The notes under the pieces are model-generated. The model searched no databases. It saw nothing but the letters and a program-made list of their open reading frames with translations, and was not told the origin of the DNA. Both the position numbers and the translations under genes were made by a program. A stretch of DNA of 64,000 bases from an uncultured delta proteobacterium. Lineage in GTDB: Bacteria > Myxococcota > Myxococcia > Myxococcales > Anaeromyxobacteraceae. Of the stretch, positions 7,948 to 53,812 are shown piece after piece. Every line of letters starts with the position of its first letter. The stretch's first letter is position 1. The stretch covers positions 192,001-256,000 of the forward strand of contig CAVYBH010000001.1 in the NCBI GenBank assembly GCA_963766715.1, in the 5' to 3' direction.

Positions 7948-7963
7948 CGGCACGAGCCCTGCT
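7948..7963 (+). promoter_or_regulatory. Putative sigma54 -24/-12 promoter of comM-recA
   Basis: CGGCACGAGCCCTGCT = GG-N10-GC, close to consensus TGGCACGN4TTGCW; 15 nt before the ATG. Confidence 0.65.
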
Positions 7964-7977
7964 CGTGTTCGCGGCCG

Positions 7978-9495
7978 ATGCTCGTCCGCGTCCGCTCCTC
8001 CTCCGTCCTCGGCGTCTCGGCCATTCCCGTCGACGTCGAGGTCGACGTGGCGGGGGGCATGCCCCGCTTCGTGCTGGTGGGGCTGGCCGGCGGCGCCGTC
8101 CAGGAGTCGGTGGTCCGGGTGGCGGCGGCGGTGCGCAACCTCGGGTTCAAGCTCCCGTCCAAGCGGGTGACGGTGAACCTGGCGCCGGCCGACCTCCGCA
8201 AGGAGGGGACCGCCTTCGACCTGCCCATCGCGGCCGCCCTCCTCGGCGCCTGCGGCCTCGTGCCGGCGGCGTCGCTCGCCGGGCTGCACCTGGCCGGCGA
8301 GCTCTCGCTCTCGGGGGAGGTGAAGGCCACCCGCGGCGTGCTCCCCATGGCCATCGCGGCGCGCCGCTCGGGGGCTCGCGCCTTCCTGGTGCCGGTCCCC
8401 AACGCGCTGGAGGCCGCCGCGGTCGAGGGGCTCTGCGTCCAGCCGGTCCGCCACCTGGGGCAGCTCGCGGCCTGGGCCCACGGGCAGGAGCCGCTCGACC
8501 CGCTTCCCCCCGGGGACCGCCCGCTCGCCCTCACCGGGGGCGCGCTCGACCTGCGCGACGTGGCCGGGCAGGAGGGAGCCAAGCGCGCCCTCGAGATCGC
8601 GGCGGCCGGCGACCACAACCTGCTCCTCTTCGGCCCGCCGGGAAGCGGCAAGACCATGCTGGCCCGCAGGCTGGGCGGGCTGCTCCCTCCGCTCGACCTC
8701 GACGAGGCGCTCGAGGCCACCTCGGTCCACAGCGTGGCGGGGCTCCTGCGCGACCGGGGGCTGCTCGGGGAGCGGCCGTTCCGGGCGCCCCACCACTCCA
8801 TCTCCGACGCGGGGCTGGTGGGCGGCTCGGCCAGCCCGCGCCCGGGCGAGGTGTCGCTCGCCCACCGCGGGGTCCTCTTCCTCGACGAGCTGCCCGAGTT
8901 CCGGCGCCACGTCCTCGAGTCGCTCCGCCAGCCGCTGGAGGACGGCGACGTCATCCTCTCCCGCGCCGGGCACACCGTCCGCTACCCGGCCGAGTTCCAG
9001 CTGGTGGCGGCCATGAACCCGTGCCCCTGCGGCTTCCTGGGCGACGCCCGCCGGGCCTGCCTGTGCGGCGACGAGCAGCTCCTCCGCTACCGGCGGCGGG
9101 TCTCCGGCCCGCTCCTCGACCGCATCGACCTCCACGTCGACGTGCCCGCCGTGCCCTGCGACCGGCTGCAGGGAGCGGGCGCGGGAGAGGGCACGGCCGA
9201 GGTGTCCTTGCGGGTCCGGGCCGCCCGGGAGCGGCAGCGGGCCCGGGGGGCGCAGAACGCGCGGCTGCGCGGCGGGGCGCTCCGGCGCCACTGCGCGCTC
9301 GACGCCGCCGCCCGGGAGGTCCTCTCGCGGGCCGCACAGCGGCTCGGCCTGTCGGCCCGGGCACACGATCGAATTCTCAGGGTGGCGCGAACCATCGCCG
9401 ACCTCGAGGGCGCGGCGCGCGTGGACGCGCGCCACCTGCTGGAAGCCGTGCAGTACCGCGCCCTCGATCGGCCGGCTTCAACGGAGGCAACGTGA
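7978..9495 (+). CDS. comM: YifB/ComM Mg-chelatase-like AAA+ ATPase
   Basis: [75 protein letters not shown]. Confidence 0.93.
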
Positions 9496-10511
9496 GCAAG
9501 CTCGTGGAGAAGATGAAGGCGCTCGCCCAGGCGGTGGGCGCCATCGAGAAGCAGTTCGGCAAGGGCAGCATCATGCGGCTGGGAGAGGAGGGAGAGGCGC
9601 CGCCCGTGCCGGTCATCCCGTCGGGGTCCATCGGCCTCGACGTCGCCCTCGGCGTGGGAGGCTACCCGCGCGGCCGGGTGATCGAGATCTTCGGTCCCGA
9701 GTCGTCGGGGAAGACCACGCTGGCGCTCCACGCCATCGCCGAGGCCCAGAAGGCCGGCGGGGTGGCCGCCTTCATCGACGCCGAGCACGCACTCGACGTG
9801 AACTACGCCCGGAAGCTGGGGGTGAACGTCGGCGAGCTGCTCGTGTCGCAGCCCGACACCGGCGAGCAGGCGCTCGAGATCGCCGAGCAGCTGGTGCGCA
9901 GCGGGGCCTGCGACATCCTGGTCGTCGACAGCGTGGCGGCGCTCGTCCCCAGGGCGGAGATCGAGGGGGAGATGGGAGACGCGCACATGGGCGTGCAGGC
10001 GCGCCTCATGAGCCAGGCCATGCGAAAGCTCACCTCGGTGGTCTCCCGCAACCTCTCCACGGTGGTCTTCATCAACCAGATCCGGATGAAGATCGGCGTG
10101 GTCTTCGGCAACCCCGAGACCACCACCGGCGGCCAGGCCCTCAAGTTCTACGCCTCCATCCGGCTCGACATCCGGCGCATCGGCCAGGTGAAGGACGGGG
10201 AGCAGGTGGTGGGGAGCCGCACCCGGGTGAAGGTGGTGAAGAACAAGGTCGCCCCGCCGTTTCGCGAGGCCGAGTTCGACGTCCGCTACGGCGTGGGGGT
10301 GGACCGGCTCGCCGAGGCCCTCGACCTGGGCGTGGAGCGCGGCATCGTCGAGAAGTCGGGGGCCTACTTCTCGCTCGACGGGGAGCGGATCGGGCAGGGG
10401 AGGGAGCGGGCCGGCGAGTGGCTCCGGGAGCACCCGGCGGCGCTCGACTCGCTCGTGGCCCGCATCGGCGGCGCCCACGCGCCACCGGCGGCCATCGCCG
10501 CGGCCTCCTGA
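9492..10511 (+). CDS. recA: Recombinase RecA (resembles the myxobacterial RecA1 paralog)
   Basis: [53 protein letters not shown] overlaps the comM TGA. Confidence 0.96.
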
Positions 10512-10526
10512 GGCCCGGCGGGGACC

Positions 10527-10958
10527 TCACTCCGCGCCGAGTGGCCAGCTCTTCCCGGCGAGCGGGAGGCGAAAGCCGCCCGGCGCGGACGGGTCCTCGC
10601 TGAGCAGCATCCCCAGCGCGATCTGGGCGGCGCGGGAGAACCGGGCCGGGTGGCCGGAGGCCAAGGTCGTCCGCAGGCGCCCGTCCGCGCCCACCCGGAG
10701 CGTGCCCGGCACGAGCGGCTCCCGGCCGCCGCCGGCGAGCAGGAGGTCGAGGTTCCCGGGGCGTTCGGCGATCCCGGTGACCACGAACGGGGTCCCGTCC
10801 ACCGTCACGGGGGCGGTCTCCCGCCCCACGCGGACGACCCATCCTTCGCCCGACGGCTCGAGGCCCCGCCAGAGGACCTCCAGCGTCCGCTCGTGGGTCA
10901 CCGCCTCGCCGTGCACGAGGAACCGCCCCTCGTCGTCGATGGAGAGCCCGGGGATCAC
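10527..10958 (-). CDS. DUF1285-like hypothetical protein
   Basis: LSIDDEGRF..HG..THER, PVTVDGTPFVV and ARFSRAAQ pattern; start approximate. Confidence 0.6.
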   Translation of the reverse strand: MIPGLSIDDEGRFLVHGEAVTHERTLEVLWRGLEPSGEGWVVRVGRETAPVTVDGTPFVVTGIAERPGNLDLLLAGGGREPLVPGTLRVGADGRLRTTLASGHPARFSRAAQIALGMLLSEDPSAPGGFRLPLAGKSWPLGAE

Positions 10959-11130
10959 GCAGGAGACATAGCGGGAAAGACCAGCTCCGGCGACGGGAGT
11001 GCGCACCTTCCCGACATGGGTGGCCTTGCGAAACCGCCTTCCCGGGTGTCACCTGATCCGGGCAGCGTCGCGTCGTCGGAGGGGGGAGCGCTTGGCACGG
11101 GCATCCAGGTTCGGATCGCTTCACGGATCG

Positions 11131-12401
11131 ATGGCGCTCTGCCTGGCCGCCGTGGCGATGGCGGCGTCCTCCTGCGGCGGCAGCCAGGGGGCCGGCGGGG
11201 CGGCCAGCGCCCTCCCGGTCGTCGCCTCGTTCGCCGCCCAGCCCGCATCCATCGAAGCCGGTGCGTCGAGCCAGCTCTCCTGGAGCGTGACCGGCGCGAC
11301 CTCGCTCGCCATCGATCCGGGAGTCGGCGCGGTGACCGGGGCACGGCACGTCGGTTACGACCGTCCGCGACCACGACCTACACGCTCACCGCGACCAACG
11401 CCGCCGGCAGCGCCACCTCCCAGGCGACGGTGACCGTGACGGGCGGCGGGACGACGGGCGCCTGCAACGGCCTCCCGACCCAGCTCTTCCCGCCCGGCGC
11501 CCCCTGGAACCAGGCCGTCGCCGGCATGGCGCTCGACCCCGAGTCGGACGCCATCGTCGCCTACCTCGCGGCCAACCACACGGCAAGCGCCCGGTTCCAG
11601 ATCACCTTCGACTTCAACCTGCTCTTCGCCGACGTGAACACCCCGCATCGCGCGTTCACGCCGACGGGCGACTTCTTCAGCCCGGACTGCGATCCAGCGC
11701 CCGTGCCGGTGCCGGCGGCCGGCCGGCTGGAAGGGGAGAGCAGCTACGCCTGCGCCTCCGACGGCGACTGCCACCTGACGGTGGTCGACCGCTCCACCTG
11801 TCGCCTGCACGAGCTCTGGCGCGCCAATCTCGCCGGGGGGACCTCGACCGGAACGTTCACGAGCGGCTGCCAGGCGATCTGGGATCTCTCCGCGGTGCCG
11901 CCGGCCACCGGCCGCGGCGACTTCTGCACCAGCGCCGACGCCGCCGGGCTTCCCATCCTGCCGCTCGTCTTCACCGCCGACGAGGTGGCGGCCGGGCGCA
12001 TCGACCACGCCATCCGCTTCGTCCTCCCCAACTCGCTCATCCGGGCCGACGTCTACGTGCGTCCAGGAACGCACTCGACCCGGGCGACCACGGGCGGAAG
12101 CGCCGCGCCTCCCTACTCGGCCCGGCTGCGGCTCAAGGCCTCGAAGGACCTGTCCGGCCTGGGCGCCGGAGCGAGGGTCATCGCCCAGGCCCTGAAGGAG
12201 TACGGCATGTTCCTGGCCGACGGCGGCAACGTGACCTTCACGGCCGCCACCGACGCGCTGACCCCCCACGGGTGGAGCGAGGTCGGCGTCGATTCCGCCA
12301 GCCTCAAGGGGCTCTCCTGGAGCGACTTCGAGGTGGTCGAGCTGGGCGCCCGGCTCCACTACGGGGCGGGCAGCTGCAGCCGGACCCCCATCACCCGCTA
12401 G
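11131..12401 (+). CDS. Secreted lipoprotein with Ig-like domain and uncharacterised C-terminal domain (frameshift near 11350)
   Basis: Lipobox AASSC; Ig-like LSWSVTGAT...TTTYTLTATNAAGS; motifs DGDCHL, SADAAGLPILP, HAIRF, YGMFLADGG. Confidence 0.65.
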
Positions 12402-12463
12402 CGAAGCGAGGCGAGCCGCTCGCGGGATGGCGGACGGCCCCGCGATGCGATAGGTGGACCGCC

Positions 12464-12929
12464 GTGAACCCCACAGAGCCCGTCCGCGAGCCGGTCGTCC
12501 GGATCCGTTGCCCCTCGCCCGAGGACGAGGTCCGCTGCCGGACCCTCCTCGAGAAGGCCGGGCTCGCGCCCGAGGCCCAGCTCACCTGGCTCGCCGTCCG
12601 CGACGCCGACCCCGATCGCGTGAACGAGAATCCTCGTCGACGGGGGAGCGCTGGGGCGGGTGGTGGTCCGGGAGCAGATCGGCAAGCTGGTCGGCTTCGT
12701 CATCGACCACGGGCCCGACCTCGCCGCGCGGGCCGGGAGCCTGCGGGCCACCGTGTCGCGCGTCCTCACGAGCGCCGGCCTCTCCGGCCGCTGGTCGCCC
12801 CGCCCGGAGGAGGAGATGGCGGCGGCGGGCGCCGCGCTCCACGAGCACCTCATGGCCACGCGGGGCGGCTTCGTCAGCTGGGAGCGGTTCACCGGCCTCT
12901 TCTGCCGGCGCGAAGCGGGCGGGAGCTAG
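12464..12929 (+). CDS. Hypothetical protein (frameshift near 12630)
   Basis: GC3-biased frames 12464-12630 and 12660-12929 join after one indel. Confidence 0.45.
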
Positions 12930-12959
12930 GCGGGCGGGAGCTAGGCAGGAGCTAGGCGG
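12915..12959. repeat. Short tandem repeat GCGGGCGGGAGCTAG x2 plus a degenerate third copy
   Basis: Units at 12915-12929, 12930-12944 and 12945-12955, spanning the stop codons of two convergent genes. Confidence 0.8.
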
Positions 12960-14236
12960 AACCCGGCGCGCCCAGGGCGCCGACGCCCATCGCCCGGCGC
13001 AGCATGTCGAGCGCCTCGTAGGACGCCGTGCGCCGCACCCGGTCGCGGTCGCCGCGGAAGACCCGGTGCACGGCCTGGGTGCCGGCCGGCCCGGCGAGCG
13101 CCAGCCAGACGGTCCCCACGGGCTTCTCCTCGGTCCCGCCGGTGGGGCCGGCGATGCCGGTGATGCCGATGCCCCAGGTGGCCCGGCCGAGGTGGCGGAC
13201 CCCCTCGGCCATCGCGCGAGCCGCCGCCTCCGACACCGCGCCGTGGGCCGAGAGCACCTCCGGCGCCACGCCCACCACGCCGGTCTTCACGTCGTTCGCG
13301 TAGGCCACCACCCCCAGGTCGAAGACGTTCGACGACCCGGAGATCGCGGTGAGCATCTCGGCGACCATCCCGCCGGTGCAGCTCTCGGCCAGCGCCACCC
13401 GCTCCCCGCGGCGGGCCAGCGCCTCCACCACCAGCCGGGCCAGCTCGTCCTTCCCCTCGGCGAAGACCGACGCGCCGAAGAGGGCGCGGACCCGCGCCAG
13501 GATCCGGTCGGCGCGCGCCTCCGCGTCCGGCCCCGGCACGGCCCACTTCACGTGGATCTCCGGCCAGTGGGCCCGGTAGCCGAAGCGCACGTCCCGGTTC
13601 TCCGGGTCGTCCATGACGGGGCGCATGGCCTGGTCGGCGTGCGACTCCGGGACCGCGAAGAGCTTCACCAGCCGGAAGGCGGGCGCCGACCCGACGCGCG
13701 ACGAGACCCGGGGCAGGACGAACTCCTCCGAGAGGCCGCGGTACTCGACCGGCACGCCCGGGAGCGCCACCAGCTCGCCCCGCCCGAGCCGGACCAGGAA
13801 CCCCGGCGCCGTGCCGAACCGGTTCGGGACGACCGTGGCGCCGCGGGGGAAGCGGGCCTGCTTGGCGTTGTTGGGCGTCATCTCCCGCCCCAGCTTCCGG
13901 AAGCGCTCCCGGATGGCCTCGAGCGACGGCGCGTGGACCTCGAGCGGCACGCCCATGGCCGCCGCCACCACCTCGGCGGTCAGGTCGTCCTCGGTGGGCC
14001 CGAGGCCGCCGCTCATGACCACCAGGTCGGAGCGGCCGGTGGTCTCCCGGATGGCGGCGAGCAGGTCGTCGCGGTCGTCGGCGACGAGCGTCTTGCGGCG
14101 CGGCATCACCCCCAGGTCCCAGAGCCGGTCCATCAGCCAGGCCGAGTTGGTGTCCACGATCTGGCCGGTGAGGAGCTCGTCGCCGGTGGCGAGCAGCTCG
14201 ACGTGCAGGGGCGGGGGGGGGGCTCGCGTCGTTCAC
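12952..14236 (-). CDS. cinA: CinA family protein (MCF domain + PncC NMN deamidase); frameshift in G-run near 14215
   Basis: ELLATGDE, DTNSAW, SGGLGPTEDDLT, GTAPG, ALAESCTGG, ITGIAGPTGG, KPVGTVW. Confidence 0.9.
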
Positions 14237-14777: not shown

Positions 14778-14795
14778 GGCGGGGCGGGAGCCCGG

Positions 14796-15644: not shown

Positions 15645-15841
15645 CGCTGGCGGGGTCCTCCCGAAGGCCCTCTGCTCCCCGGAGGCTGGCACGCGAGCCG
15701 GGGGTTGTCGAGGCAACGTCCGTCACCCGGGGATGTAAGCGCCCCATCCGGGGGCCGCCACGATCCCGGCGGGGGCGAGACTGTCGCGTGAATACGTCCT
15801 GATTACAGATACTTGTGCTGCCGCCGGGCCGCGCCGGCCGA

Positions 15842-16878
<1,037 letters not shown>

Positions 16879-18194: not shown

Positions 18195-20404
18195 TCAGAG
18201 CATGGCGTGCGGGTCGACGTCGAAACGGACGCTGGCCCCCCCGGGCGGCCGGGCGGCGGCCGGCTTGAGGGCCCGGTGGACGCGCCGGAGGGCCGCGGCG
18301 TCGGAGGCGCGGAAGAGCAGGTGCCAGCGGCTGCGCCCCCGGATCCGCTCGATGGCGGCCGGGGCCGGACCGAGCAGGGTGACCCCCTCCCCGAGCGCCG
18401 GGCGGGCCGCCTCTCCGAGCGCCTCGGCGGTGCGCCGGGCGCCGTCCTCCGACCCCTCGACCCGCACCGCCAGCATCCGGCCGAAGGGCGGGTAGCCGAG
18501 GGTCCGCCGCCGGTCGAGCTCCAGCTCGGCGAAGCCGGCGTAGTCGTGACCCACCGCGAAGGCGACCGCCGGGGAGTGGGGGTGGAAGGTCTGGACGATG
18601 ACCTGCCCGGGATCGGCGCCGCGCCCGGCCCGGCCGGCCACCTGGGTGAGCAGCTGGAAGGTCCGCTCGGCGGCCCGGAAGTCGGGCAGCGCGAGCGCGG
18701 TGTCGGCGAGCACCACCCCCACCAGCGTGACCCCCGGGAAGTCGTGCCCCTTCGTCACCATCTGCGTGCCCACCAGCACGTCGATCTCGCGGCGGGCGAA
18801 GCGGGCCAGCAGCTCGGCCACGTCGGCCGCGCCGGCCAGCGCGTCGCGGTCCATCCGCGCCACCCGCGCGCCGGGCACGATCTCCTTCACCGCCGCCTCC
18901 ACCTGCTCGGTGCCCACCCCCACGCCGGCCCGCTCCCCGCCGCAGGCCGGGCAGGTGCGGCTCATGCGCTCGGTGGCGCCGCAGTAGTGGCAGAGGAGCA
19001 CCCCGCGCCGGGCGTGCAGGGTGAGCGAGACCGAGCAGTTCTCGCAGCGCTCCTCGCGGCCGCAGTCCCGGCACAGGACGAGCGTCTGGAAGCCGCGGCG
19101 GTTGAGGAAGAGGATGGCCTGCCGCCCGGCCCGCACCGTGTCGGCGAGCGCATCGCGGAGGACCGGCGAGAGGAGCCCGGGCAGGGGGAGCCCCTTGCGG
19201 ATGCGGGACAGGTCGACGATCCGCACCTCGGGCAGCGGGCGGTCGTCGATGCGCCGCGGGAGCTCGATGCGCTCGTACTTCCCGGTGCGGGCGTTCTCGA
19301 GGGTCTCGAGCGAGGGCGTGGCCGAGCCGAGCACGCAGACCGCCCCCTCCTCGCGGGCCCGGACCACCGCCAGGTCGCGCGCGTGGTAGCCGGGGCCGTC
19401 GTCCTGCTTGAAGGACGGGTCGTGCTCCTCGTCGACCACCACGATGCCCAGGTCCTGCACCGGCGCGAAGACGGCGCTGCGGACCCCCACGCAGATGCGG
19501 GCCTCGCCCCGGCGCAGCCGCAGCCACTCCGAGTGACGCTCCCGGTCGGAGAGCCCGCTGTGGAGCAGCGCCACCTCGGCGCCGAAGCGGGCGCGGAAGC
19601 GGCCGGCCAGCTGCGGGGTGAGCGCAATCTCCGGCACGAGCACGAGCGCCCCGCGGCCGGCGGCGCGGGCCACGCGCGATGGCGTGCAGGTAGACCTCGG
19701 TCTTCCCGGAGCCGGTCACGCCGTGGAGCAGGAAGGTGCGGAAGGTCCCGGCCGCCGCGGTGATCCGGGCCAGCGCCGCCGACTGATCGGCGGTCAGCGC
19801 GGGGGGCGTCTCGGCGCCGGGGAGGAGCGCGTCGCCGCCCGCCACCCCGGCCACGGTCTCCACGGTGGCGAGGCCGTCCTTCACGAGCGCGGAGAGGATG
19901 GGGCGCCCGCGCGGGAAGGCGGCCCGGAGCTCCTCGACCGGGATGCGCCCGCGGGCGAGCAGGTACTCGAGGACGGCGCGCCGGGCGTGGGCCCGGGGCG
20001 CGATCCCCGCGCAGGGCCTCGGCGGCGCCGGGTGCCGGAGCGGCGTAGTCGACCCCGCGCCGGGTGGGCGCGGCGCCCCCGCGCCTGGCGTTCAGGCCGG
20101 GGGGAAGCGCGGCGCGGAGCAGCTCGCCCGGCGGGGCCAGGTAGTAGTCCTCGGCCCAGCGCAGGAGCCGGAGCAAGGGCTCGGTGAAGGGAGGGAACTC
20201 GTCGAGCACGCCGGTCACGTCGCGCAGCTCGACCCCCGGCGGCGGGGAGAGCGGCAGCCCGATCACGTAGCCGGTGGCCCGCTGGCTCTTGCCGAACGGC
20301 ACGGCGACGCGGCTCCCCAGCGACACCTCGCCGGCGAGCCGGCTGGGGACGCGGTAGGTGAAGGTGCCGCGGACGGCGGCAGCGACGGCGACCTCGACGA
20401 GCAC
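18195..20404 (-). CDS. priA: Primosomal protein N' (two frameshifts)
   Basis: LHGVTGSGKTEVY, LVPEIALTPQ, DEEHD, SATPS, four CxxC pairs, GTQMVTKGHDFP, QVAGRAGR. Confidence 0.93.
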
Positions 20405-30871: not shown

Positions 30872-31222
30872 CTAGCCGCCCTTGGCCGTCCGGGCCGGCT
30901 CGGCGGGCCGCGCCGGCGCCGGCGCCTCCCCGACGGTCAGCACCCCCTTCATCTTCGAGAACCAGGCGGGGCTCATCCCCTTCACGCGCAGGATCTCGTC
31001 CGCCTTCTTGAAGGGGCGCTTGTCCCGCGCGGCCACGATGGCCTCGGCGCGCTTCTTCCCGACGCCGGGCAGGCGCATCAGCTCGGCGGCGGTGGCGGAG
31101 TTGAGGTCCACCCGCTCACCCGGGGAGAGGGGCTTCTTCTGGGCCTCGGCGGGCAGGGCCACGAGGAGGGCCAGCAGGGCGAGCAGCCCGAGCAGCGGCG
31201 AATGGCCGCGAGCCGGGCTCAC
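30872..31222 (-). CDS. comEA: ComEA-family helix-hairpin-helix DNA receptor
   Basis: Signal peptide; VDLNSATAAELMRLPGVGKKRAEAIV...F...EILRVKG; GTG overlaps the upstream TGA. Confidence 0.85.
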   Translation of the reverse strand: MSPARGHSPLLGLLALLALLVALPAEAQKKPLSPGERVDLNSATAAELMRLPGVGKKRAEAIVAARDKRPFKKADEILRVKGMSPAWFSKMKGVLTVGEAPAPARPAEPARTAKGG

Positions 31223-31482
31223 GTGCGCGCCTCCTCCGCGGACGGGGCGTGGCCGCCCTTGCCGTTGCCGGCCTGGGCGTCCTCCGGGAAGCGCTGCTCG
31301 CGGATCTGCAGCCGGTTGGTGCTCGCCGGGAAGGCGTCGAGCACCACCGTGAGGCTGCCGTCCCGGTTGGTGAATGCGGCCCCCACCTTCATCCAGTAGG
31401 GCTTTCCTCCGTCCTTGCGGTCGAGGACCGCGAAGACGGAGAGGGGCTTGCGGCCGGTGGGGCCGCCGTTCGAGTCGGTCAT
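31219..31482 (-). CDS. Small conserved beta-rich protein (putative ssDNA-binding)
   Basis: 87 aa; YWMKVGAAFTNRDGSLTVVLDAFP..RLQIRE core; good SD; function inferred. Confidence 0.65.
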   Translation of the reverse strand: MTDSNGGPTGRKPLSVFAVLDRKDGGKPYWMKVGAAFTNRDGSLTVVLDAFPASTNRLQIREQRFPEDAQAGNGKGGHAPSAEEART

Positions 31483-31521: not shown

Positions 31522-31537
31522 AGCAACGCGCGTGCCC
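31522..31537 (-). promoter_or_regulatory. Putative sigma54 promoter of the small protein-comEA operon
   Basis: Minus strand GGGCACGCGCGTTGCT; one mismatch to TGGCACGN4TTGCW. Confidence 0.75.
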
Positions 31538-31635
31538 GCGCCGAGGCCGCGATCGCGGCCGGGCGATCCCCGTCGCAGGTCCGGGAGGCGGACCGCGGTT
31601 CGGAGGACGGCCGGCCGGGCCGCCTGACCGCCGGG

Positions 31636-35631: not shown

Positions 35632-37011
35632 TTACTCCAGCCGGTCGAGCGCCTCGGAGACCGTCTCCACGCCGATGACCTCCATGCCGGCGGGGGCCTC
35701 GACGTGCCGGGCGTTCCCGGCCGGGACCACGGCGCGCCGGAAGCCCAGCCGCGCCGCCTCCGAGAGCCGGGCCTCGCCCTGCGCGACGGCGCGCACCTCG
35801 CCCGCCAGCCCCACCTCGCCCAGCACCAGCGTCCGGGCGTCGATGACCTTGTCGCGGAAGGAGGAGGCGAGCGCCGCCACCGTGGCCAGGTCGGCGGCGG
35901 GGTCCTCGAGCGTCATGCCGCCGGCCACGTTCACGAAGAGGTCGCAGCCCAGGATGTCGAGGCCGACCTTCTTCTCGAGCACCGCGGCGAGCAGGGCCAC
36001 GCGCGCCGGGTCGAGCCCGAGCGCGGTGCGGCGGGGGGTGCCGAAGCCGGTGGGCGCCACCAGCGCCTGCACCTCGACGAGCAGGGTGCGCGTCCCGGAG
36101 AGCGCCGCGGTGACCGCGCTCCCGGCCGCGTCCTGGGGGCGCTCGGCCAGGAAGAGCGCCGACGGGTTCGCCACCTCGGAGAGGCCGCGCGACTTCATCT
36201 CGAAGACGCCGATCTCGCTGGCCGAGCCGAAGCGGTTCTTGTGGGCGCGCAGCACGCGGTACGGGTGGGCGCCGCCCCCCTCGAAGTAGAGCACCGTGTC
36301 GACGATGTGCTCGAGCACGCGCGGCCCGGCGATGGAGCCGTCCTTCGTGACGTGCCCCACCAGGAAGACCGGCGTCTCGGAGGTCTTGGCGTAGCCCATC
36401 AGGCGCGCCGCCACCTCGCGGATCTGGGTCACCGTCCCGGGCGCCGACGAGAGCTCGGGCAGGTACTGGGTCTGGATCGAGTCGACCGCCAGGATGGCCG
36501 GCTCGAGCTGGGAGGCGACGTGGAGCACGCGGGAGGCGTCGGTCTCGGCCAGCAGGTGGAGGTTCTCCGCGTCGACCCCCAGCCGGTCGGCCCGCAGCTT
36601 CACCTGCCGCGCCGACTCCTCGCCGGTCACGTAGAGCACCGGGCGGCCGGAGAGCTGCTTCGCCAGCCGGTCGAGCGCGGTGAGGAGCAGCGTGCTCTTG
36701 CCGATGCCCGGGTCGCCGCCCAGGAGCACGAGCATCCCGGGCACCACGCCGCCGCCCAGCACCCGGTCGAGCTCGCCGATGCCGGTCCGGATGCGCTCGT
36801 CCTCGCTCGCCACCACCTCGCGCAGCGGGATGGGCTTCGCCGCCGAGGCGGCCGAGGGGACGCGGGACGCACTGTGGACGTCCGGCGCGACCTCCTCGTG
36901 GAGGGTGTTCCAGCGGTGGCAGGAGGGGCACTGGCCGAGCCATTTCGGGGAGGAATGCCCACACTCCGCGCAGGCATAGACGCTTTTCTGGCGGGGGGCG
37001 GGGCGGGCCAT
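35632..37011 (-). CDS. radA: DNA repair protein RadA/Sms
   Basis: C4 zinc finger [42 protein letters not shown]. Confidence 0.96.
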
Positions 37012-37026
37012 GCGCGGACCTTGCCA

Positions 37027-37042
37027 TGCAACCCTGACGCCG
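37027..37042 (-). promoter_or_regulatory. Putative sigma54 promoter of radA
   Basis: Minus strand CGGCGTCAGGGTTGCA = GG-N10-GC with a TTGCA -12 element; 16 nt before the ATG. Confidence 0.6.
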
Positions 37043-41592: not shown

Positions 41593-41601
41593 GAACGGAG
41601 G

Positions 41602-43462: not shown

Positions 43463-43470
<8 letters not shown>
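42264..43470 (+). CDS. MFS transporter (true 3' end uncertain; ORF stays open to 44045)
   Basis: ANLYYAQPLL, PLGDAVERRRL, GILLART, GWR.VY, SVFWTTL, NTVYM. Confidence 0.85.
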
Positions 43471-47063
<3,593 letters not shown>

Positions 47064-47149
47064 GGTGCGGCACCCCCTGGGGGCTGCTTAGATAGCACCC
47101 GGGTCTGACCGCTTCCACCCGTGCTCCCCCCTTCCTGGAAGGTGCCGCG

Positions 47150-47689
47150 ATGCTGAAGAAAATCCTGATCGCCGTGGTCGCCATCGTCGCCGTCTTCGCC
47201 GTCTACGTGTCCACCCGGCCGGCCACCTACCGCGTCGAGCGGACCCTGGTGGTGAAGGCGCCGGCCGAGGCCCTCTACGGCCAGGTCGTCGACTTCCGGA
47301 AGTGGCCCGCCTGGAGCCCCTGGGCGAACCTCGACCCCGCCATGAAGACCGACTTCACCGGCCCCGACGCCGCGCCGGGCTCCGTCTACCACTGGAAGGG
47401 CAACGACAAGGTGGGCGAGGGGCGCATGACCATCACCGGCGTGAAGCCCGACCAGGTCGTCGACATCAAGCTCGAGTTCATCAAGCCCTGGGAGCAGGTC
47501 AGCCAGACCGAGTTCACCTTCGTGCCCGACGGCGCAGGGACCCGGGTGACCTGGTCGATGTCCGGGGACCAGGACTTCGTGGGCAAGCTCTTCAGCGTCT
47601 TCATGAACATGGACAAGATGGTCGGGCCCGACTTCGAGAAGGGGCTGGCCTCGCTCCAGCGCATCGCCGAGGGGAAGCCGGCGCCCTGA
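47150..47689 (+). CDS. SRPBCC family protein
   Basis: N-terminal TM; WPAWSPW, Y.WKGN..VGEG.M, GTRVTWSM, GPDFEKGL. Confidence 0.85.
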   Translation: MLKKILIAVVAIVAVFAVYVSTRPATYRVERTLVVKAPAEALYGQVVDFRKWPAWSPWANLDPAMKTDFTGPDAAPGSVYHWKGNDKVGEGRMTITGVKPDQVVDIKLEFIKPWEQVSQTEFTFVPDGAGTRVTWSMSGDQDFVGKLFSVFMNMDKMVGPDFEKGLASLQRIAEGKPAP

Positions 47690-47701
47690 CCGGTCCGTGA
47701 C

Positions 47702-47737
47702 CCAGGCCGCGGCTCAGGCCGCGACTCAGGCCGCGAC
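47702..47737. repeat. 12-bp tandem repeat (T/C)CAGGCCGCG(A/G)C x3
   Basis: Units at 47702, 47714 and 47726; the last contains the glycosyltransferase stop codon. Confidence 0.8.
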
Positions 47738-48835
47738 GACGCCGTCGCCGTAGGCCGCGAGCGTCTTCCGCGCCATCGACTCCAGCGAGAACCCCGCGCG
47801 AACCCGCGCCTGCCCGGCCGCGCCGAGCCGGGCGGCGAGCGCCGGGTCGGAGAGCAGCGCGACGACGGCCGCGGCGAACGCGCCGGGATCGCCCGACTCG
47901 AAGAGCAGCCCCGACTCGCCGTGGACGACCAGCTCCGGGATGCCGCCCACGCGCGCGGCCACCACCGGGACGCCGGCGGCCATGGCCTCGGCGAGGGCGA
48001 GGCCGAGCGCCTCCTGCCGGGAGGGGAGGGTGGCGACGGTGAGGTCGGGGACGAGCCGGGCGGGGTCGTCGCGGTGGCCGAGGAAGTGGACCGAGCCGGC
48101 GATGCCCAGCGAGCGGGCCTGCGCCTCGAGGGCCGCCGTGGTCTTGCCGGCGTCGGCGTCGCCGCCGAGGAACACGAAGCGCGTCGACGGGTGGCTCGCC
48201 AGGATCGCCGGCGCGGCGCGGAGCAGGAGCTCCTGCCCCTTCGCGCCGCTGAGCCGCCCCGACAGGCCGACGAGCGGCACGCCGGCGTCGACGCCCAGCT
48301 CGCTCCGCAGGACGCCGCGCGGCGCCGAGGCGAACCGCTCCACGTCGATGCCGTTGTGCACCACGGCGACGAGCTCCGGAGGGACCTTGCCGGCGAGCTC
48401 GGCGGCGACGGCTCCGGAGACCGCGATGATCCGGTGCAGCCCGCGCGCCACCCAGCGCTTCCAGGGATTCGACCCGCGAGCCTTGGCGAGGTGGCGGGTG
48501 ACCACGACCCGGACGCCCGGGAGGCCCGAGGCGGCGAGGCGGCCCGTCGACCAGTCCTGGACCTGGTGGCCGTGGAGGACGTCGACGTGCTCGGCCAGGC
48601 AGAAGGCGCGCAGCTTCCAGGCGGCGCGCGGCTGGATCGTCCCGCTGGAGAGGACCGGGAGCACGTCGAACCCCTCCGCGGCGGCCGCGCGCGCGAGCGG
48701 CGAGTCGGGGCGGCAGGCGATGGTGATGCGGCAGCCGCTCTGGACGAGCGCGTGGGACAGGCCGAGGACGTGCACCTCTCCGCCGCCCCAGCCCTTGGCC
48801 GAGCTCACCTGGAGGACGTGCAGGGCGCGGGGCAC
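47726..48835 (-). CDS. GT4 family glycosyltransferase
   Basis: GGGE, AVS, VHNGID, GRL..AKG, PS..EALGLALAEAMAAG.PVV. Confidence 0.88.
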   Translation of the reverse strand: MPRALHVLQVSSAKGWGGGEVHVLGLSHALVQSGCRITIACRPDSPLARAAAAEGFDVLPVLSSGTIQPRAAWKLRAFCLAEHVDVLHGHQVQDWSTGRLAASGLPGVRVVVTRHLAKARGSNPWKRWVARGLHRIIAVSGAVAAELAGKVPPELVAVVHNGIDVERFASAPRGVLRSELGVDAGVPLVGLSGRLSGAKGQELLLRAAPAILASHPSTRFVFLGGDADAGKTTAALEAQARSLGIAGSVHFLGHRDDPARLVPDLTVATLPSRQEALGLALAEAMAAGVPVVAARVGGIPELVVHGESGLLFESGDPGAFAAAVVALLSDPALAARLGAAGQARVRAGFSLESMARKTLAAYGDGVVAA

Positions 48836-48845
48836 GAGGCGCCGG

Positions 48846-49229
48846 TCAGTGCTTCAGGGACGCCGGGTGCGCCTCCTCCTCGAAGCCGTGGGCCACGAGG
48901 AAGTGGTAGACCGCCGAGGGGTCGCTGGCGCCGCCCACCACCTCGAAGAGGAAGTGGCGCTCCCCTTCCTCCTCCGCCTCGAGGGTGGACTGCACGTAGA
49001 TCGCCTCGCGGACGTCGAGGACGATCTCGGCGATGATCTGCTTGCCCCGGACCAGCTGCACCGACGGGTTGCGGTCCGGGTCCTCCTCCAGGTGCCAGTG
49101 GAGGTCGTCCTGATCGTACAGCCAGACGTCGGGGGTGCCCGCCCGCAGGATGCAGTTGGGGTGGTGCTTCAACCACTTCCAGAAGCGTTCGAACGGGAGC
49201 GTGGCGCCCGACTGGACGGTGAGGGACAT
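48846..49229 (-). CDS. Conserved hypothetical protein
   Basis: 127 aa, GC3-biased; FERFWKWLKHHPNCILRAGTP...YHFLVAHGF. Confidence 0.65.
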   Translation of the reverse strand: MSLTVQSGATLPFERFWKWLKHHPNCILRAGTPDVWLYDQDDLHWHLEEDPDRNPSVQLVRGKQIIAEIVLDVREAIYVQSTLEAEEEGERHFLFEVVGGASDPSAVYHFLVAHGFEEEAHPASLKH

Positions 49230-49258
49230 GTGCGCGGGACTATAACCCCGCGGTGGCG

Positions 49259-49472
49259 TCAGGCGCTGGCCTGGGGCGGGTAGGCGACGGCGACCTGGCC
49301 GTTCGCCTCCCAGACGAACGGGCGCGGAGATCCAGCCGCAGCGGGCGCAGTAGCCGCGCATCGTGCCGGGCGTCGCCCGCACGCTCATGGGCCCCTCGCA
49401 CACGGCGCAGCCGCCGGAGACGGTGAATTCCCGGGACTCGGGGGCGGGGGTGGTGTCGCGGTCGGGATGCAT
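49259..49472 (-). CDS. Small Zn-ribbon protein (frameshift near 49322)
   Basis: CAVC...CARC pairs; upstream TTGCCA-16 nt-TACCTT promoter. Confidence 0.55.
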
Positions 49473-49539
49473 GTCGTCGAAGGTAACCACGCCCCGGGAG
49501 GTGGCAAGCGGTCCGTCGCGCCGGCAGCCGCCGCGGCGC

Positions 49540-50535
49540 TCAGCCGCGCGCCAGCCGGGGGAGCAGGTACCCGAGAGACCGGTCGTATCGGTAGTTCACG
49601 TCCCGGTGCCCGTCGTCGAACTCCTCGTGGACGGCCTCGACGCCGCCTTCGCGGAGCGACGCGGCGACCATGCGGGCGCCCCAGCGGAGGTTGAACTCGT
49701 CCCGCGTGCCGCAGTCGAGGAACACGCTCGAGAGCCGGCGGAAGGCGTCGAGCGACGCGGGGACGAAGCGGACCGGGTCGTGGGCGAGCCAGCGCTCCCA
49801 GACCTCGGGGCGGAGGCGCGCGGTCTCCGGGTCGAAGGGAAGCTCCAGGCCGGCCGGGGCGCCGGCCTTCGGGGAGTAGGCGGCGGCCATGGCCAGGATG
49901 TTGAGCGGTGCGTGGTCGTCGCCGCGCATCTTCGTCTCGAGGGCCCGGCGCCGGAGGTCCTCGAGCCAGGTACCGGGGTCCGTGCCGAGCAGCGCGCCCG
50001 CGGTGCGCGGGAAGTCGGGCAGGTAGCAGTACTCGAACGCGGCGTCCCCGGCGTGGGAGCCGACGTGGCCGAAGACGTCCGGGTGGTGGCGACCCATCAC
50101 GAGCGCGCCGTAGCCGCCGGACGACTTGCCCACCACCGCCCGGGCCGAGGGGTGGGGGAGGGTGCCCAGCTTCGCGTCGACGAAGGACACGACGTCCCGG
50201 GCCACGTAGTCGCGGTAGTCGCCGATGGCCGGGCTGTTCACCCACTGGCTGCCGCCGAACGCCGTCCAGCCGTCGATGAAGACCCCCACCGTGGGCGGGA
50301 CCTTGCCGGACGCGACGAGCCGGTCGAGCCGCTCCGGCACGGTGAGGCCGAAGCCCGGGAAGCCGGTCCAGGAGTGGGCACTGCCCGTGAACCCGTGGAG
50401 GAAGTAGACGGCCGGCAGGCCGGGGCGGAAGCCGGGCGGGCGGTACAGGTAGACGGGTCGGCGCGACGGGTCGCCGAGCGGGTTGCCGCGCAGCGCGGGT
50501 GCGTCGATCTCGTCCAGGTCCAGACGACCTTCCAT
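49540..50535 (-). CDS. Esterase (enterochelin esterase-like alpha/beta hydrolase)
   Basis: NPLGDP..R...VY.PP, LHGFTG, GKSSGGYGA, LDCG..DEF, EFDDGH. Confidence 0.85.
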   Translation of the reverse strand: MEGRLDLDEIDAPALRGNPLGDPSRRPVYLYRPPGFRPGLPAVYFLHGFTGSAHSWTGFPGFGLTVPERLDRLVASGKVPPTVGVFIDGWTAFGGSQWVNSPAIGDYRDYVARDVVSFVDAKLGTLPHPSARAVVGKSSGGYGALVMGRHHPDVFGHVGSHAGDAAFEYCYLPDFPRTAGALLGTDPGTWLEDLRRRALETKMRGDDHAPLNILAMAAAYSPKAGAPAGLELPFDPETARLRPEVWERWLAHDPVRFVPASLDAFRRLSSVFLDCGTRDEFNLRWGARMVAASLREGGVEAVHEEFDDGHRDVNYRYDRSLGYLLPRLARG

Positions 50536-50578
50536 GGGTCTCTCCCTCCGGTGGGTTACCGGATAGGATAGCCCGCTC

Positions 50579-51181
50579 ATGCCCTCCGGACTCGTCGAGA
50601 GCTTCGGCCACGCCCTGCGCGGACTCGTCGAGGTCACGGCGCGCGAGCGGAACATGAAGATCCACGTGCTGGCCGGCACCGGGGTCGGTCTCCTGGCCGC
50701 CGAGGTGGCGCTTCCGCTCCCGGCGCGCCTCGCGCTCGTGCTGGCCGTGATGCTGGTGGTGGCCGCCGAGATGGGCAACAGCGCGCTCGAGGCGCTCGTC
50801 GACCTGCACACGAAGGAGTTTCGCGAGGAGGCCCGCCGCGTGAAGGATGCCGCGGCCGGCGGCGTCCTCGTCCTCGCGATCGGTGCGGTGCTGCTCGCCC
50901 TCGCCGTCGCGGTGGGGAACTCGGACGCCGTCCGGGTGGCGTTCGAGCGGCGCGGCGTGCACCTCGTCCTCGCCGCCGGCGTGCTCCTGCTCGAGGGCTT
51001 CCTCCTCTTCGGCCGGGGCCGCTCCGCGCTCCTCGACGGCATCGCCATCGCGGTCGGGGCCGTGCTCGCGAGCTTCCTCGGATACGGCAGCCAGAGCGGC
51101 GCGCTGTCCCTCACCGCCATCTTCCTCTTCGCGCTCGCGGGATCGTCGGCGCTCTTCGCACGGTCCACGGAGAAGGCATGA
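50579..51181 (+). CDS. DgkA-family kinase (diacylglycerol/undecaprenol) with membrane extension
   Basis: SF.HALRG......ERN..IH, EMGNSALEALVDL, KDAAAGGVL. Confidence 0.8.
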   Translation: MPSGLVESFGHALRGLVEVTARERNMKIHVLAGTGVGLLAAEVALPLPARLALVLAVMLVVAAEMGNSALEALVDLHTKEFREEARRVKDAAAGGVLVLAIGAVLLALAVAVGNSDAVRVAFERRGVHLVLAAGVLLLEGFLLFGRGRSALLDGIAIAVGAVLASFLGYGSQSGALSLTAIFLFALAGSSALFARSTEKA

Positions 51182-52716
51182 GACTGCCGCGGTTCCTCGC
51201 CCTCCTCCTCGCCATCCATTCACCTTGCGTCGCGTTGCTGACGGTATCGCTGGCCGTCGCCAGGCCCTCCATCGCCGCCGCCGCGGAGGCGCTTCCGAAG
51301 TACGGCGTCTCCCCGCTCCTCCCGCCCGAGCACTGGGCGGTCCGCGCCGCGGCGCGCCTCGACGGCGTGGGGCTCGTCACCGGCTACCTGCCCGCCAACC
51401 AGGCCGCGCCCATGTACATGGTCTGGGCGGCGCTCGAGGAGGGGGCCCGCCGCGCGGAGAAGGAGCGGCCGGCCATGGCCGCGCTCGCCAGGGGCTGGAA
51501 GGAGAAGTTCCAGGCCGAGTGGCGCGGCATCGACGAGAAGGGGCTCCTCCGCTTCCTGGGCGGACAGGCGTCCATCGGCTACGAGTGGGACGGCGTCTCG
51601 CCGGAGCCCGCTGCGGTGCCGCCGGCCGCGTGGTCCCTCACCCCGCCGCACGACCCGACGCCGGTCCTGGCGGTCGAGGCCGCCGGCGCCCTCGACGACT
51701 ACCTGGCGCTGCTCGTCGCCCCGGTGGGCACGGCCTGGCAGCTGCGCTGGGCCGGCGAGCTCGTGGCCGGCATCGGCCCGGTGTCGCTGTCGGCCGGCCG
51801 CGCGCCCGCGCAGACCGGATTCGCGTCGCCCGGAGGCGGAGTGGTCTTCGGCGGAGAGTCCCTGCGCGACCGGGTGGCCTTCCAGATCTACCGGCCCGTG
51901 GACATCTACATCGGGCTCCTCACGCTCGACGTGTCGCTGGCGCGGCTGGGGTCGCCGCACCACGCCCCGAACACGCTTCTCTGGGAGTGGTCGCTCCAGT
52001 ACCAGCCGGTGCCGCGCCTCACCTTCGGCGTGCAGAGCGGGATCATGATGGGCGGCTCCACCTGGGAGACGCTGACCGGCGCGCCCTTCACCTTCAGCGA
52101 CTTCATGCACGTCATCACCTACCGGGGGAACGGATCCGAGAACAACCTCTTCTCGATCTCCGGGCGATGGCGGCTGCCCACCGAGGACTGGGTGCCCATC
52201 ACCATCTACGGCGAGTGGGGCGCCGACGACAACGGCGGGGCCTGGTACCAGGCCCCGGGCCTGGACGCCGGGATTCTCGTCCCCAGCCTGCCCTTCGCCC
52301 CCGAGGTCTCGGTCGGCCTCGAGTGGAGCTTCTTCGGCACGGTCTGCCAGCCAGGCGCGCCCGACGGCGGGCTCTGCCGCCCGCCCGACTTCCCGCTCAA
52401 CTGGTACACGCACGCCTACAGCTGGACGCAGTTCGACCAGCCGCTCGGCCACCGGATGGGCGGCAACGGCCGCGAGCTCTTCCTGTACGCCGCCGCCGAC
52501 CTGCTCGACGCGCGGCTCCTCGTGCGCGGCGACGTCTTCCTGCGCGACCGCTTCTCCGCCAACCTCTACGCGCCGTACACCGGCCGGAGCGGCGGCTTCG
52601 ACCTGCAGGCCACCTGGCGCATCGGGATCGGCGAGCTGGGCGTGAACGGCGGGCTGGAGGCCGGCAGCGGCTGGACCTCGGGCGGCGCCGGCGCGCGCGC
52701 GACCGTGTTCTTCTAG
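51178..52716 (+). CDS. Capsule assembly Wzi-like outer membrane protein
   Basis: Signal peptide; YGEWGADD, WYTH......QPLGHRMGGNG; C-terminal Phe; next to polysaccharide genes. Confidence 0.65.
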   Translation: MRLPRFLALLLAIHSPCVALLTVSLAVARPSIAAAAEALPKYGVSPLLPPEHWAVRAAARLDGVGLVTGYLPANQAAPMYMVWAALEEGARRAEKERPAMAALARGWKEKFQAEWRGIDEKGLLRFLGGQASIGYEWDGVSPEPAAVPPAAWSLTPPHDPTPVLAVEAAGALDDYLALLVAPVGTAWQLRWAGELVAGIGPVSLSAGRAPAQTGFASPGGGVVFGGESLRDRVAFQIYRPVDIYIGLLTLDVSLARLGSPHHAPNTLLWEWSLQYQPVPRLTFGVQSGIMMGGSTWETLTGAPFTFSDFMHVITYRGNGSENNLFSISGRWRLPTEDWVPITIYGEWGADDNGGAWYQAPGLDAGILVPSLPFAPEVSVGLEWSFFGTVCQPGAPDGGLCRPPDFPLNWYTHAYSWTQFDQPLGHRMGGNGRELFLYAAADLLDARLLVRGDVFLRDRFSANLYAPYTGRSGGFDLQATWRIGIGELGVNGGLEAGSGWTSGGAGARATVFF

Positions 52717-52726
52717 GCTCCGCGTC

Positions 52727-53782
52727 CTAGAAGGTCGCGTTCTGGCCTGGCGGCTCGTGGACGTTCGCGTCACGGCCCGTGGCGCCATGTGGGCCGCGCC
52801 CCGGACGCGTGTGCCGTCGGTGAACCGGTCCATCCAGTCGTCGCCGAAGGCCTGCCGGGCCGCGAGCTGGTTGTGGAACCGGCAGACGAGCCGGCAGTTC
52901 TCGACCGTCGAAGGACCGCCGCGGGCCCGCGGGATCACGTGGTCGATCTCCAGGCAGAGCTTCGAGTCGCAGGTGCCGCCGCCCTCGACCGGCCACTGGC
53001 ACCGGCCCTTGTCCCTCGCCCAGACGGCGCGCTTCACCGCGGGTGGCACCTGGCGCCGCCGCTTCTCCTGCTGCGCCAGGAGGAGGTCCAGCGCGGCATC
53101 CAGGACATGCTCCGCGGTCGCCCCGGGCTGGACGTGTGCCTGGCCTGCGCGCGCCCGCTCGAGCTTCTCGAGCAACTGCTTCGAGACGGTGACGTGGAGG
53201 CGGCGGAGGTCGGGGTGAGGCCACGGCCACGGAGCGGGACTACGGAAGGGGCACCGGACCGGAGGCTAAGCGGCGGCGGGAGCGCGGACCCTTTCGCGGT
53301 CGGGTCGGGTCCAGTTCAACCGGTTGAACTGGGAGTCGGGGGCGGCTGGCGGCGTCCGCGACGCGTCCGTCACGACCACCCGCCGCGGCACGAGCTCGGC
53401 CGGCCGGATCTCGACGGCCGTCGCCTGCGCCTCCCGCCTCGACAGGTGGAAGAAGCGCGGGAGCACGTCGGCCCGGTTCTCCGGGGTGATGACGCGGGCC
53501 AGCTCGATCACGCTGGTGATGCACAGCCTGCCGTCGCGGAGGGGCTCGACCACCTCCGGGTAGGCCTGCAGCAGCGTTGCTGCGACCTTGCGGTAGTGGG
53601 CGGACCCTCGGGAGAGCTGCAGCTCCCGGTGCAGGTAGTCGAACAGGCTCGCGTGGCCCAGCTCGACCCAGAGCCGTTGCCGGTCGAAGTCTGGCGAGCG
53701 CGACGAGGAAGTCGGCCATGGCGTCGTGCTCGCGGCGGAGGAGCTCGGTGAGGCGGAGGGAGGACTCGTGTGCGTGGTTCAT
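52727..53782 (-). CDS. HNH endonuclease with DUF222-like N-terminal domain (multiple frameshifts; possibly mobile or pseudogenised)
   Basis: VPPAVKRAVWARDKGRCQW...C....LEIDHVIPRARGGPSTVENCRLVCRFHN; N-terminal LRREH..ADFLVALA..F....LWVELGHASLF. Confidence 0.8.
53311..53332. repeat. Perfect 22-bp palindrome inside the HNH gene linker
   Basis: CCAGTTCAACCGGTTGAACTGG equals its own reverse complement. Confidence 0.9.
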
Positions 53783-53796
53783 GGGCGCGAGGGGCT

Positions 53797-53812
53797 TGCA
53801 GGTTCAGGGCCA
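53797..53812 (-). promoter_or_regulatory. Putative sigma54 promoter of the HNH gene
   Basis: Minus strand TGGCCCTGAACCTGCA = GG-N10-GC; 15 nt before the ATG. Confidence 0.55.

Follow-up and report, generated by a model that had tools for sequence, protein, structure and literature searches.

Predicted Sigma54 Promoters at comM-recA and orf87-comEA

The window analyzed here is a stretch of 64,000 nucleotides (contig CAVYBH010000001.1, positions 192,001 to 256,000; assembly GCA_963766715.1) from an uncultured soil member of the Anaeromyxobacteraceae, in the phylum Myxococcota. Four of its loci are preceded by a 16-mer that resembles the -24/-12 element of sigma54 promoters (Table 1): comM-recA, which encodes a branch-migration helicase and a RecA paralogue; orf87-comEA, which encodes a small protein and a DNA receptor; radA/sms; and a gene for an HNH endonuclease. 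A first-pass annotation had assigned all four to one sigma54-dependent competence regulon. The four 16-mers are found at the coordinates and strands that it gave, their GC lies 15 (comM), 40 (orf87), 16 (radA) and 15 nt (HNH) from the start codon, and the gene identities hold (YifB/ComM, recA, RadA/Sms, a ComEA helix-hairpin-helix (HhH) protein and HNH, the last frameshifted in the assembly). The regulon itself survives in part: the motifs of comM-recA and orf87-comEA are conserved, and are likely to be -24/-12 elements of sigma54 promoters of one regulon, whereas radA (motif in 14/30 loci) and HNH (1/30) are better left out of it.

The window's own genome (G000; other G labels denote relatives, C a contig and L a locus) is a 4.2-Mb assembly of 72% GC, 84.6% complete and with many frameshifts, in which our own gene calls gave 3,510 genes. 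It encodes rpoN (one PF04552 match) and bacterial enhancer-binding proteins (bEBPs; 24 PF00158 matches). The sigma54 consensus is YGGCACG-N4-TTGCW, with GG and GC exactly 10 nt apart. The bare GG-N10-GC pattern occurs 14.7 times per kb in G000 with no enrichment before starts, and is no evidence of a promoter in this genome. Sites were read from two matrices: W, hand-set from the sigma54 consensus, and P, trained on the orthologue sites of comM and orf87 with G000 left out; unless W is mentioned, a score given below is whichever of the two is higher. With W, the orf87 site reaches 14.8 bits (24 sites of the genome score as high or higher), comM 12.6 (98), HNH 10.65 (386) and radA 9.8 (632), and the same matrix also picks up genes that we read from their sequences as GlnA-like, PII and GspC-like. 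As background, a site of at least 10 bits within 100-200 nt is found in 1.8-2.9% of genes. Relatives share ancestry and orthologue counts are not independent samples, so the conservation counts are not to be taken as probabilities. Loci without flank were left out of the counts (L204 for radC, L086 for orf87, L280 for comEC and five loci of the lamin-tail operon described below), as was L407, for which the wrong flank had been retrieved.

The matrix-scored comM and orf87 sites are conserved far above the background. For comM, W gives at least 10 bits in 29/30 of the best-matching loci and in 17/20 of a second set, and a site of at least 10 bits is present in all 20 additional loci, from a second family (f6, with genomes of 9-13 Mb, probably Myxococcaceae) and another order; the total across order and class is 66/70. 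Among 50 aligned comM sites GG is kept in 50 and GC in 49, with a variable N4 spacer. The recA gene directly follows comM in 28/30 loci, the other two having no flank. The orf87 site scores at least 10 bits with W in 26/29 loci of the Anaeromyxobacteraceae (f1), at least 8 bits in 29/29, and at least 10 bits in 16/17 loci from other families of the order (42/46 loci in total at this threshold); GG is kept in 28/29 and GC in 29/29 aligned sites. Behind orf87 comes comEA in 26/29 loci of the family and in 14/17 at the level of the order. As regards orf87 itself, searches returned no Pfam family, no PDB sequence match and no matching fold (the best values being E 0.44 with Foldseek and Z 2.9 with VIA), Atlas matches were unnamed, and PHROG matches were weak and carried no assigned function. 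A role as a PC4-like binder of single-stranded DNA found no support from sequence or fold searches; that Orf87 may be a cytoplasmic DNA-handling factor is a guess.

The recA gene of the window is one of two in G000, the other copy lying on C8 and being 74% identical. Genes of the C8 type carry GTTCAG-type LexA-like boxes and a PafBC-type motif (5/5), and comM-linked recA genes lack LexA-like boxes and, in f6, have a sigma54 site of their own (3/3 and 7/7). As the recA1 gene of Myxococcus xanthus has no LexA box, is expressed at a low basal level and is required when the cell recombines DNA (PMC7029660), the window recA is likely of the RecA1 type. One relative (G020, L332) has a partial comM match with an internal stop and a linked recA without its N-terminus, and the operon looks disrupted there.

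The first-pass annotation had contrasted the near-leaderless motifs with TAnnnT boxes of housekeeping genes, and was right about the latter: such boxes form a strong genome-wide peak 6-11 nt before ATG. Leaderless mRNAs are therefore probably common in G000, which makes near-leaderless sigma54 promoters plausible.

Table 1. Features of the window discussed in the text (positions within the window).
Feature	Position	Strand	Remarks
Shared palindromic box of comM, proximal copy (putative activator site)	7891..7907	+	14.2 bits with the G000-free matrix; 57 nt upstream of the comM sigma54 site
Predicted sigma54 -24/-12 promoter of comM-recA	7948..7963	+	GC 15 nt before ATG; near-leaderless (inferred)
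comM, YifB-family AAA+ branch-migration helicase	7978..9495	+	TIGR00368, 577.6 bits, over cut-off; Pfam
Second recA paralogue	9492..10511	+	PF00154; start overlaps comM stop
comEA, signal/transmembrane segment and HhH DNA-binding domain	30872..31222	-	PF12836, TIGR00426
orf87, conserved small all-beta protein	31219..31482	-	In 50/61 genomes; no Pfam; model pLDDT 70.6, four strands
Predicted sigma54 promoter of orf87-comEA	31522..31537	-	GC 40 nt before ATG; 14.8 bits
Tandem shared box of orf87-comEA	31578..31613	-	Copies 31578-31594 and 31597-31613, at -57 and -76; 14.1 and 8.2 bits
radA/sms	35632..37011	-	TIGR00416 over cut-off; not assigned to the sigma54 regulon
PafBC-type promoter of radA, GTCAG-N10-CAAGGT	37018..37038	-	-10 hexamer 6 nt before ATG; overlaps the earlier motif 37027-37042
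HNH endonuclease gene, expanded family	52760..53782	-	Frameshifted, end approximate; not assigned to the regulon
Sigma54-like 16-mer before HNH	53797..53812	-	386 equal or better sites in genome; best box score -5.4

A Shared Box and Further Members

The promoters of comM and orf87 have a second element in common. In f1, tandem copies of an imperfect palindrome, GTCCGC-N3-GCGGAC, lie upstream of the -24/-12 site at distances of about 57 and 77 bp: among comM orthologues GTCCG is most frequent at -55/-57 and -76/-77, and it stands at -55/-58 and -76/-77 from the site in the comM and orf87 sets, and the helical phase of the box relative to the site is fixed in these two unrelated sets. Tandem phased palindromes near a -24/-12 site are the typical look of a bEBP site. 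Because the conserved sigma54-type motifs share one box, the genes behind them are likely switched on together by a single activator.

A composite scan of the genome for site plus box gave 10 matches of at least 22 bits versus none at control offsets. The top match is orf87-comEA; comM, radC and two promoters of a T3SS (type III secretion system) export cluster (SctJ, FliN/SctQ, FliO, SctR, T, U, V) are also among them, as are an operon ending in an immunoglobulin-like (Ig)/lamin-tail domain (LTD) lipoprotein, a tetratricopeptide repeat (TPR) lipoprotein, a needle-like paralogue with an LcrH-like chaperone, and a divergent gene pair without named function. The site is conserved at at least 12 bits in 29/29 radC orthologues and at at least 10 bits before the first T3SS gene in 30/30 loci; the LTD operon has it in 18/30 loci, five being without flank, in a 1100-nt search span for which the background is 10.9%. 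In a held-out test on the radC, LTD and T3SS promoters of f1, a box of at least 9 bits was found at 64/69, and 59 of those 64 were in helical phase, while among other strong sigma54 promoters of G000 the figure is 0/27. Relaxed box-plus-site patterns proved noisier than their own controls, and a GGAC pattern scanned in f6 and f4 matched mostly unrelated sigma54 genes; both were discarded. Taken at this level, a sigma54 regulon shared by these genes is very probable; that it serves transformation is a further step, which we hold less firmly.

The same promoters could be of the sigma54 type while the box is no bEBP site at all, being instead a repeat similar to repetitive extragenic palindromes or the site of another regulator, in which case one common activator would not be needed. 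The box is GC-rich, single copies of at least 10 bits occur 825 times in the genome, it precedes RAYT-like genes, and it often lies just after an upstream stop codon. Such an origin would hardly explain the fixed helical phase at five unrelated promoters, the 0/27 among other sigma54 promoters, or the inverted, downstream position of the box at the comEC leader, and we regard it as very unlikely.

The RAYT-like transposase genes (NF047646, below cut-off) have both site and box before them in 11 of the 14 G063 regions that were retrieved; in G020, too, they are found behind such sites. In these expanded genes the promoter lies 13-14 nt before the start (G063: L162-L170, L172, L173; G020: L176, L179). 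Mobile or domesticated genes may be tied to the competent state.

The T3SS genes form a small, dispersed system (G000:C7:24039-31933, L121-L122; C17:181600-183030; C12:708770-710694; C13:119280-119880), comprising an export cluster that includes a FliO-like gene, a paralogue accompanied by an LcrH-like chaperone, SctL-SctN and a gene that may be ruler-like. The first gene has a needle-like C-terminus, for which an Atlas match to PF09392 on 11% of one cluster is a lead only. It resembles the needle-less T3SS* of M. xanthus (PMC10433427, PMC10849154) in having SctJ, SctQ, SctR/T/U/V, SctL, SctN and LcrH-like chaperones; it differs in that the regulon cluster is small, has the FliO-like gene and a first gene that may be needle-like, and probably corresponds to a second cluster. 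G053 has two SctV, and its best match to the first regulon T3SS gene adjoins the lower-scoring one, which we read as the smaller cluster; the regulon T3SS may correspond to this second cluster rather than to the predation cluster (MXAN_2434-2464 type).

T3SS parts make up much of the regulon, and a needle-less myxobacterial T3SS is reported to be needed for prey lysis (PMC10433427). One bEBP-controlled regulon might therefore serve contact killing and feeding on DNA, with the recombination genes riding along and transformation marginal, which would also suit a dprA that is not co-regulated. Against this stand ComM, the second RecA and RadC, which integrate DNA rather than digest it, and the arrangement in G053, which points to the smaller cluster. 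A regulon for killing and feeding is in our view improbable.

A Predicted comEC Leader Antisense to cdnL

In G000 comEC is divergent from cdnL, a CarD-like gene that is essential in M. xanthus (PMC2919716), and no sigma54 promoter for comEC was found in the gap between the two. The site lies instead beyond cdnL: in f1, a TGGCAY-N6-TGCW site in the cdnL-ispD gap points back through cdnL, and an ATG or GTG 13-16 nt after its GC opens a frame of 250-280 codons antisense to cdnL, whose TGA overlaps the comEC start (ATGA, GTGA, TTGA, CTGA). The site and the in-register start are present in 25/25 f1 loci from nine genera, and in 24 of them the stop overlaps a comEC-like start; the segment from start to cdnL has eight different lengths, all multiples of 3. 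The tandem box is found here downstream and inverted, mostly at +74/+93. In G000 the whole arrangement (sigma54 site, downstream inverted tandem box and a 260-codon leader ending on the comEC start) spans C17:145333-146143 (L003:95-905). Since antisense openness is expected and the peptide outside cdnL is by eye not conserved, the frame is read as a translated leader, not as a protein.

Among the 120 matches listed from a GTDB-wide motif scan, 14 are linked to cdnL and 106 are without it. The layout is repeated in all nine full-length cdnL-linked matches listed, including Anaeromyxobacter sp. PSR-1 and A. oryzae; of the other five, four ended at the locus edge and one had an early stop. In four loci of another family (f3) a weaker site of 9.4-10.8 bits lies directly before comEC. 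RNA runs yielded nothing beyond small shares and contigs bearing the cdnL of other organisms.

It is likely, judging from this geometry, that comEC is transcribed from the sigma54 site beyond cdnL through the antisense leader. The geometry of an excludon, whose single transcript is sense for one gene and antisense to its divergent neighbour (PMC4627465), is present at 25/25 loci, and a mycobacterial antisense RNA driven by an alternative sigma factor, AscarD, lowers a factor of the CarD/CdnL family (PMC8820732). The present case differs in that the antisense stretch, read from sequence alone, forms a conserved leader, open throughout and coupled with comEC, whose predicted promoter is of the sigma54 type.

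Other com Genes

The first-pass annotation had suggested inspecting further com genes and had named dprA among those whose lack of a motif would speak against it. The result is mixed: comEC, radC and probably comF join the regulon, whereas dprA (1/30 loci at 10 bits or more) and ssb are outside it. In the gpmI-comF region a sigma54-like site lies 70-105 nt upstream in 21/25 loci where comF follows and in none of the four where it does not (background 9/600); comF is a probable member. For dprA, a TTGAC-N17-TA sigma70 promoter is seen by eye in most family loci. By comparison, the ComK, ComX and TfoX regulons typically include both dprA and ssb.

One genus (g6; G018, G026, G034) deserves mention: comM, dprA, the first T3SS gene and the LTD protein were not found there with the queries used, and comF is not beside gpmI. 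Two of its genomes nevertheless have site and box at orf87. Loss of competence in this genus is possible.

A Predicted Separate PafBC-Type Circuit at radA

The case of radA is different. Its GG..TGC motif is present in 14/30 loci (13 of the same genus plus one) and absent from 16; no shared box stands before the radA of the window (best 0.8 bits); and an overlapping motif, GTC[AG]G-N10-[TC]A, is found in 28/30 orthologous loci. The latter agrees with the PafBC consensus tGTCgg(N10)tA(N3)T (PMC8635444), and on these three grounds radA was rejected as a member of the sigma54 regulon. A genus-specific second promoter, of the sigma54 type and overlapping the PafBC-type one, is conceivable though doubtful.

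The HNH gene was rejected as well, its site being unconserved and the window copy being without box: at least 10 bits are reached in 1/30 homologous loci, namely the window copy itself, and the 16-mer is probably there by chance. The family reaches 23 copies per genome, and three of 30 homologues elsewhere carry site plus box. Many of the homologues L342-L370 share another upstream motif, roughly CGCATGAGAC, just before the start.

All four window motifs could still be promoters of one regulon, as first proposed. Before radA, loci of the same genus retain GG and TGCA without exception (13/13) amid varying flanks, and the three boxed HNH homologues point the same way. With 16/30 radA loci lacking the motif, no box at radA in the window, a PafBC-type motif that fits 28/30, and an HNH site in the window that is neither conserved nor boxed, this four-member version appears extremely unlikely.

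The PafBC-type motif extends beyond radA. Between genes of G000 there are 17 matches at the N10 spacing versus 3, 7, 13 and 1 at N8, N9, N11 and N12, and eight of the 17 precede repair or replication genes by our own reading; dnaB, mutL, ruvB, a uvrD-like helicase, ssb, the other recA, ribonucleotide reductase and lepA (names likewise our own reading) are among the genes that have it, and in genus g10 it precedes dprA in two loci. Tandem orthologues of pafB and pafC, encoding HTH-WYL proteins, are located at G000:C8:17300-19240 (L124; E 1.4e-16 to the M. smegmatis PafB chain and 7.5e-10 to PafC), and both DNA-reading arginines of PafB are aligned in the G000 orthologue. This suggests a PafBC-like damage regulon in Myxococcota. 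It would resemble the actinobacterial PafBC regulon (PMC8635444), with radA and repair genes behind GTCRG-N10-TA and tandem pafB/pafC-like genes, and differ from it in its host and in a -10 hexamer that often lacks its last T; its activity is predicted. Another group of three WYL genes, arranged in tandem in G000 (C14:68500-71200, L131), is flanked by a gene for a NERD helicase and one for a TY chaperone.

That the sigma54 genes themselves form a late DNA-damage or developmental stress regulon, in which ComEA and ComEC import repair templates or stay idle, has to be weighed here. M. xanthus recA1 is induced late after ultraviolet (UV) irradiation and is needed for recombination (PMC7029660), and the RAYT-like transposases carry the same promoter. 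On the other hand, dnaB, mutL, ruvB, the uvrD-like gene, ssb, the other recA and radA use the separate PafBC-type motif, and genes for envelope and uptake functions abound in the regulon. A stress regulon thus seems rather improbable, slightly more so than one for killing and feeding.

As to neighbouring genes of the window, recR, priA and dnaE are seemingly split by frameshifts (4329-4952, 18195-20404 and 43463-47063), probably through assembly indels, as with dprA and radC elsewhere.

A Sigma54/bEBP Model of Competence

In f1, site and box stand together, as sequence, at comEA, comEC, comM-recA and radC. The model that we consider the most probable, with some reserve, is that one bEBP opens the promoters of the regulon and makes the cell competent, that comEC transcription interferes with cdnL, and that the T3SS helps to reach or lyse donors. 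A signal would activate one of the bEBPs of the genome, which would bind the tandem boxes about 57 and 77 bp upstream and open sigma54-RNA polymerase at mostly leaderless promoters. The output would include ComEA, as periplasmic DNA receptor, together with Orf87, and ComEC, as membrane channel, from a transcript that would start behind cdnL and run antisense through it with ATGA-type coupling; the same transcript would lower CdnL and slow growth. For integration the cell would make ComM, a dedicated RecA paralogue and RadC; probably ComF, and the products of the Ig/lamin-tail lipoprotein operon and the TPR lipoprotein, would be made as well. More speculatively, the small T3SS with its needle-like subunit might lyse or contact neighbours and free their DNA. 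dprA would stay on its housekeeping sigma70 promoter, and radA, ssb and the other recA on the PafBC-like damage circuit. A bEBP with two FHA-type domains (G000:C9:31125-32741, L473) is a candidate activator, as a lead only.

The claim of the first-pass annotation that DNA uptake and recombination are under sigma54/bEBP control is strengthened by two loci, a shared box and extra members, and weakened by radA and HNH, both sigma54 dependence and competence being predictions. Several observations weigh against the model. Its basis consists of motifs, conservation, spacing, gene content and overlap of reading frames, from which promoter activity, activator, competence and antisense effect are all inferred. 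One matrix (P) was trained on comM and orf87 sites of relatives that are not independent. Among the bEBP genes of the genome, none has a box above chance nearby. In the second comM set, 19 of whose 20 loci are from other families, the box matches at 1/20, and in f6 there is no more than a weaker, degenerate TCC..GGAC pair, displaced by 10 bp. At the usual offsets the comF-operon site is boxless, dprA is without a sigma54 site in 29/30 loci, and ssb has a PafBC-type motif in place of one (G000 only). Two pilin genes have sigma54 sites and no box, for which reason the uptake pilus is not placed under the shared control. At comEC, an open antisense frame is by itself uninformative, as 653/703 control genes have one too (205/703 if flanks are included); the cdnL-antisense layout is found in 0/13 loci of other families, and comEC of f6 has no evident sigma54 site. 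Finally, M. xanthus recA1 is UV-induced (late) and is drawn with -10/-35 boxes (PMC7029660).

A fuller version can be drawn, in which competence is a sigma54/bEBP switch with a T3SS-derived filament for contact or DNA capture, a full uptake and integration path with its own RecA, growth shutdown via cdnL, RAYT-like transposases that copied the promoter, and repair split onto the PafBC circuit. Taken with all its parts, we put it forward as a tentative proposal that is more doubtful than the plain model.

Relation to Known Competence Systems

The searched literature, with most subscription journals outside the search, holds no report of sigma54 promoters at comM, comEA, comEC or radC, and none of a leader for comEC that passes through cdnL; the main text of a 2025 survey of sigma54 regulons does not mention competence, comEA, radC or transformation (PMC12316311). 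The only link between RpoN and competence found in the searched literature runs via a pilin, pilA of Ralstonia (PMC4371752). In R. solanacearum, sigma54 (RpoN1) and an enhancer-binding protein (PehR) are required for natural transformation, which is the likeness; the proposed link is through pilA only and comEA is not mentioned in the text (PMC4371752), whereas here the core com genes are boxed and the pilin promoters are not. The TfoX/QstR programme of Vibrio cholerae joins comEA, comEC, comM and comF to a killing machine, the T6SS (type VI secretion system), that frees neighbours' DNA, as the present model would; its uptake genes depend on TfoX/QstR, with sigma54 acting only through VasH on the T6SS (PMC6237807). 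Here, by contrast, the -24/-12 sites lie on the uptake and recombination genes themselves, the T3SS is reduced and dprA is outside. The RocC/RocR system of Legionella governs the same gene set (comEA, comEC, comM, radC, comF) by post-transcriptional repression through a small RNA rather than by sigma54 activation (PMC12378983).

Natural transformation of M. xanthus has been reported, second-hand, to be of low efficiency (PMC11610982). If the model is true, Myxococcota, in which transformation is reported to be inefficient, would possess a master switch for it, and a constitutive activator could render strains transformable. Sigma54/bEBP control would join the known competence regulators as a new way to control natural transformation, competence would be coupled to growth arrest in a simple manner through cdnL, and the low-expressed recA1 and the second myxobacterial T3SS would gain testable roles, next to a predicted PafBC-like damage response in this phylum. 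As every promoter and box is defined to the base, the model is directly testable.

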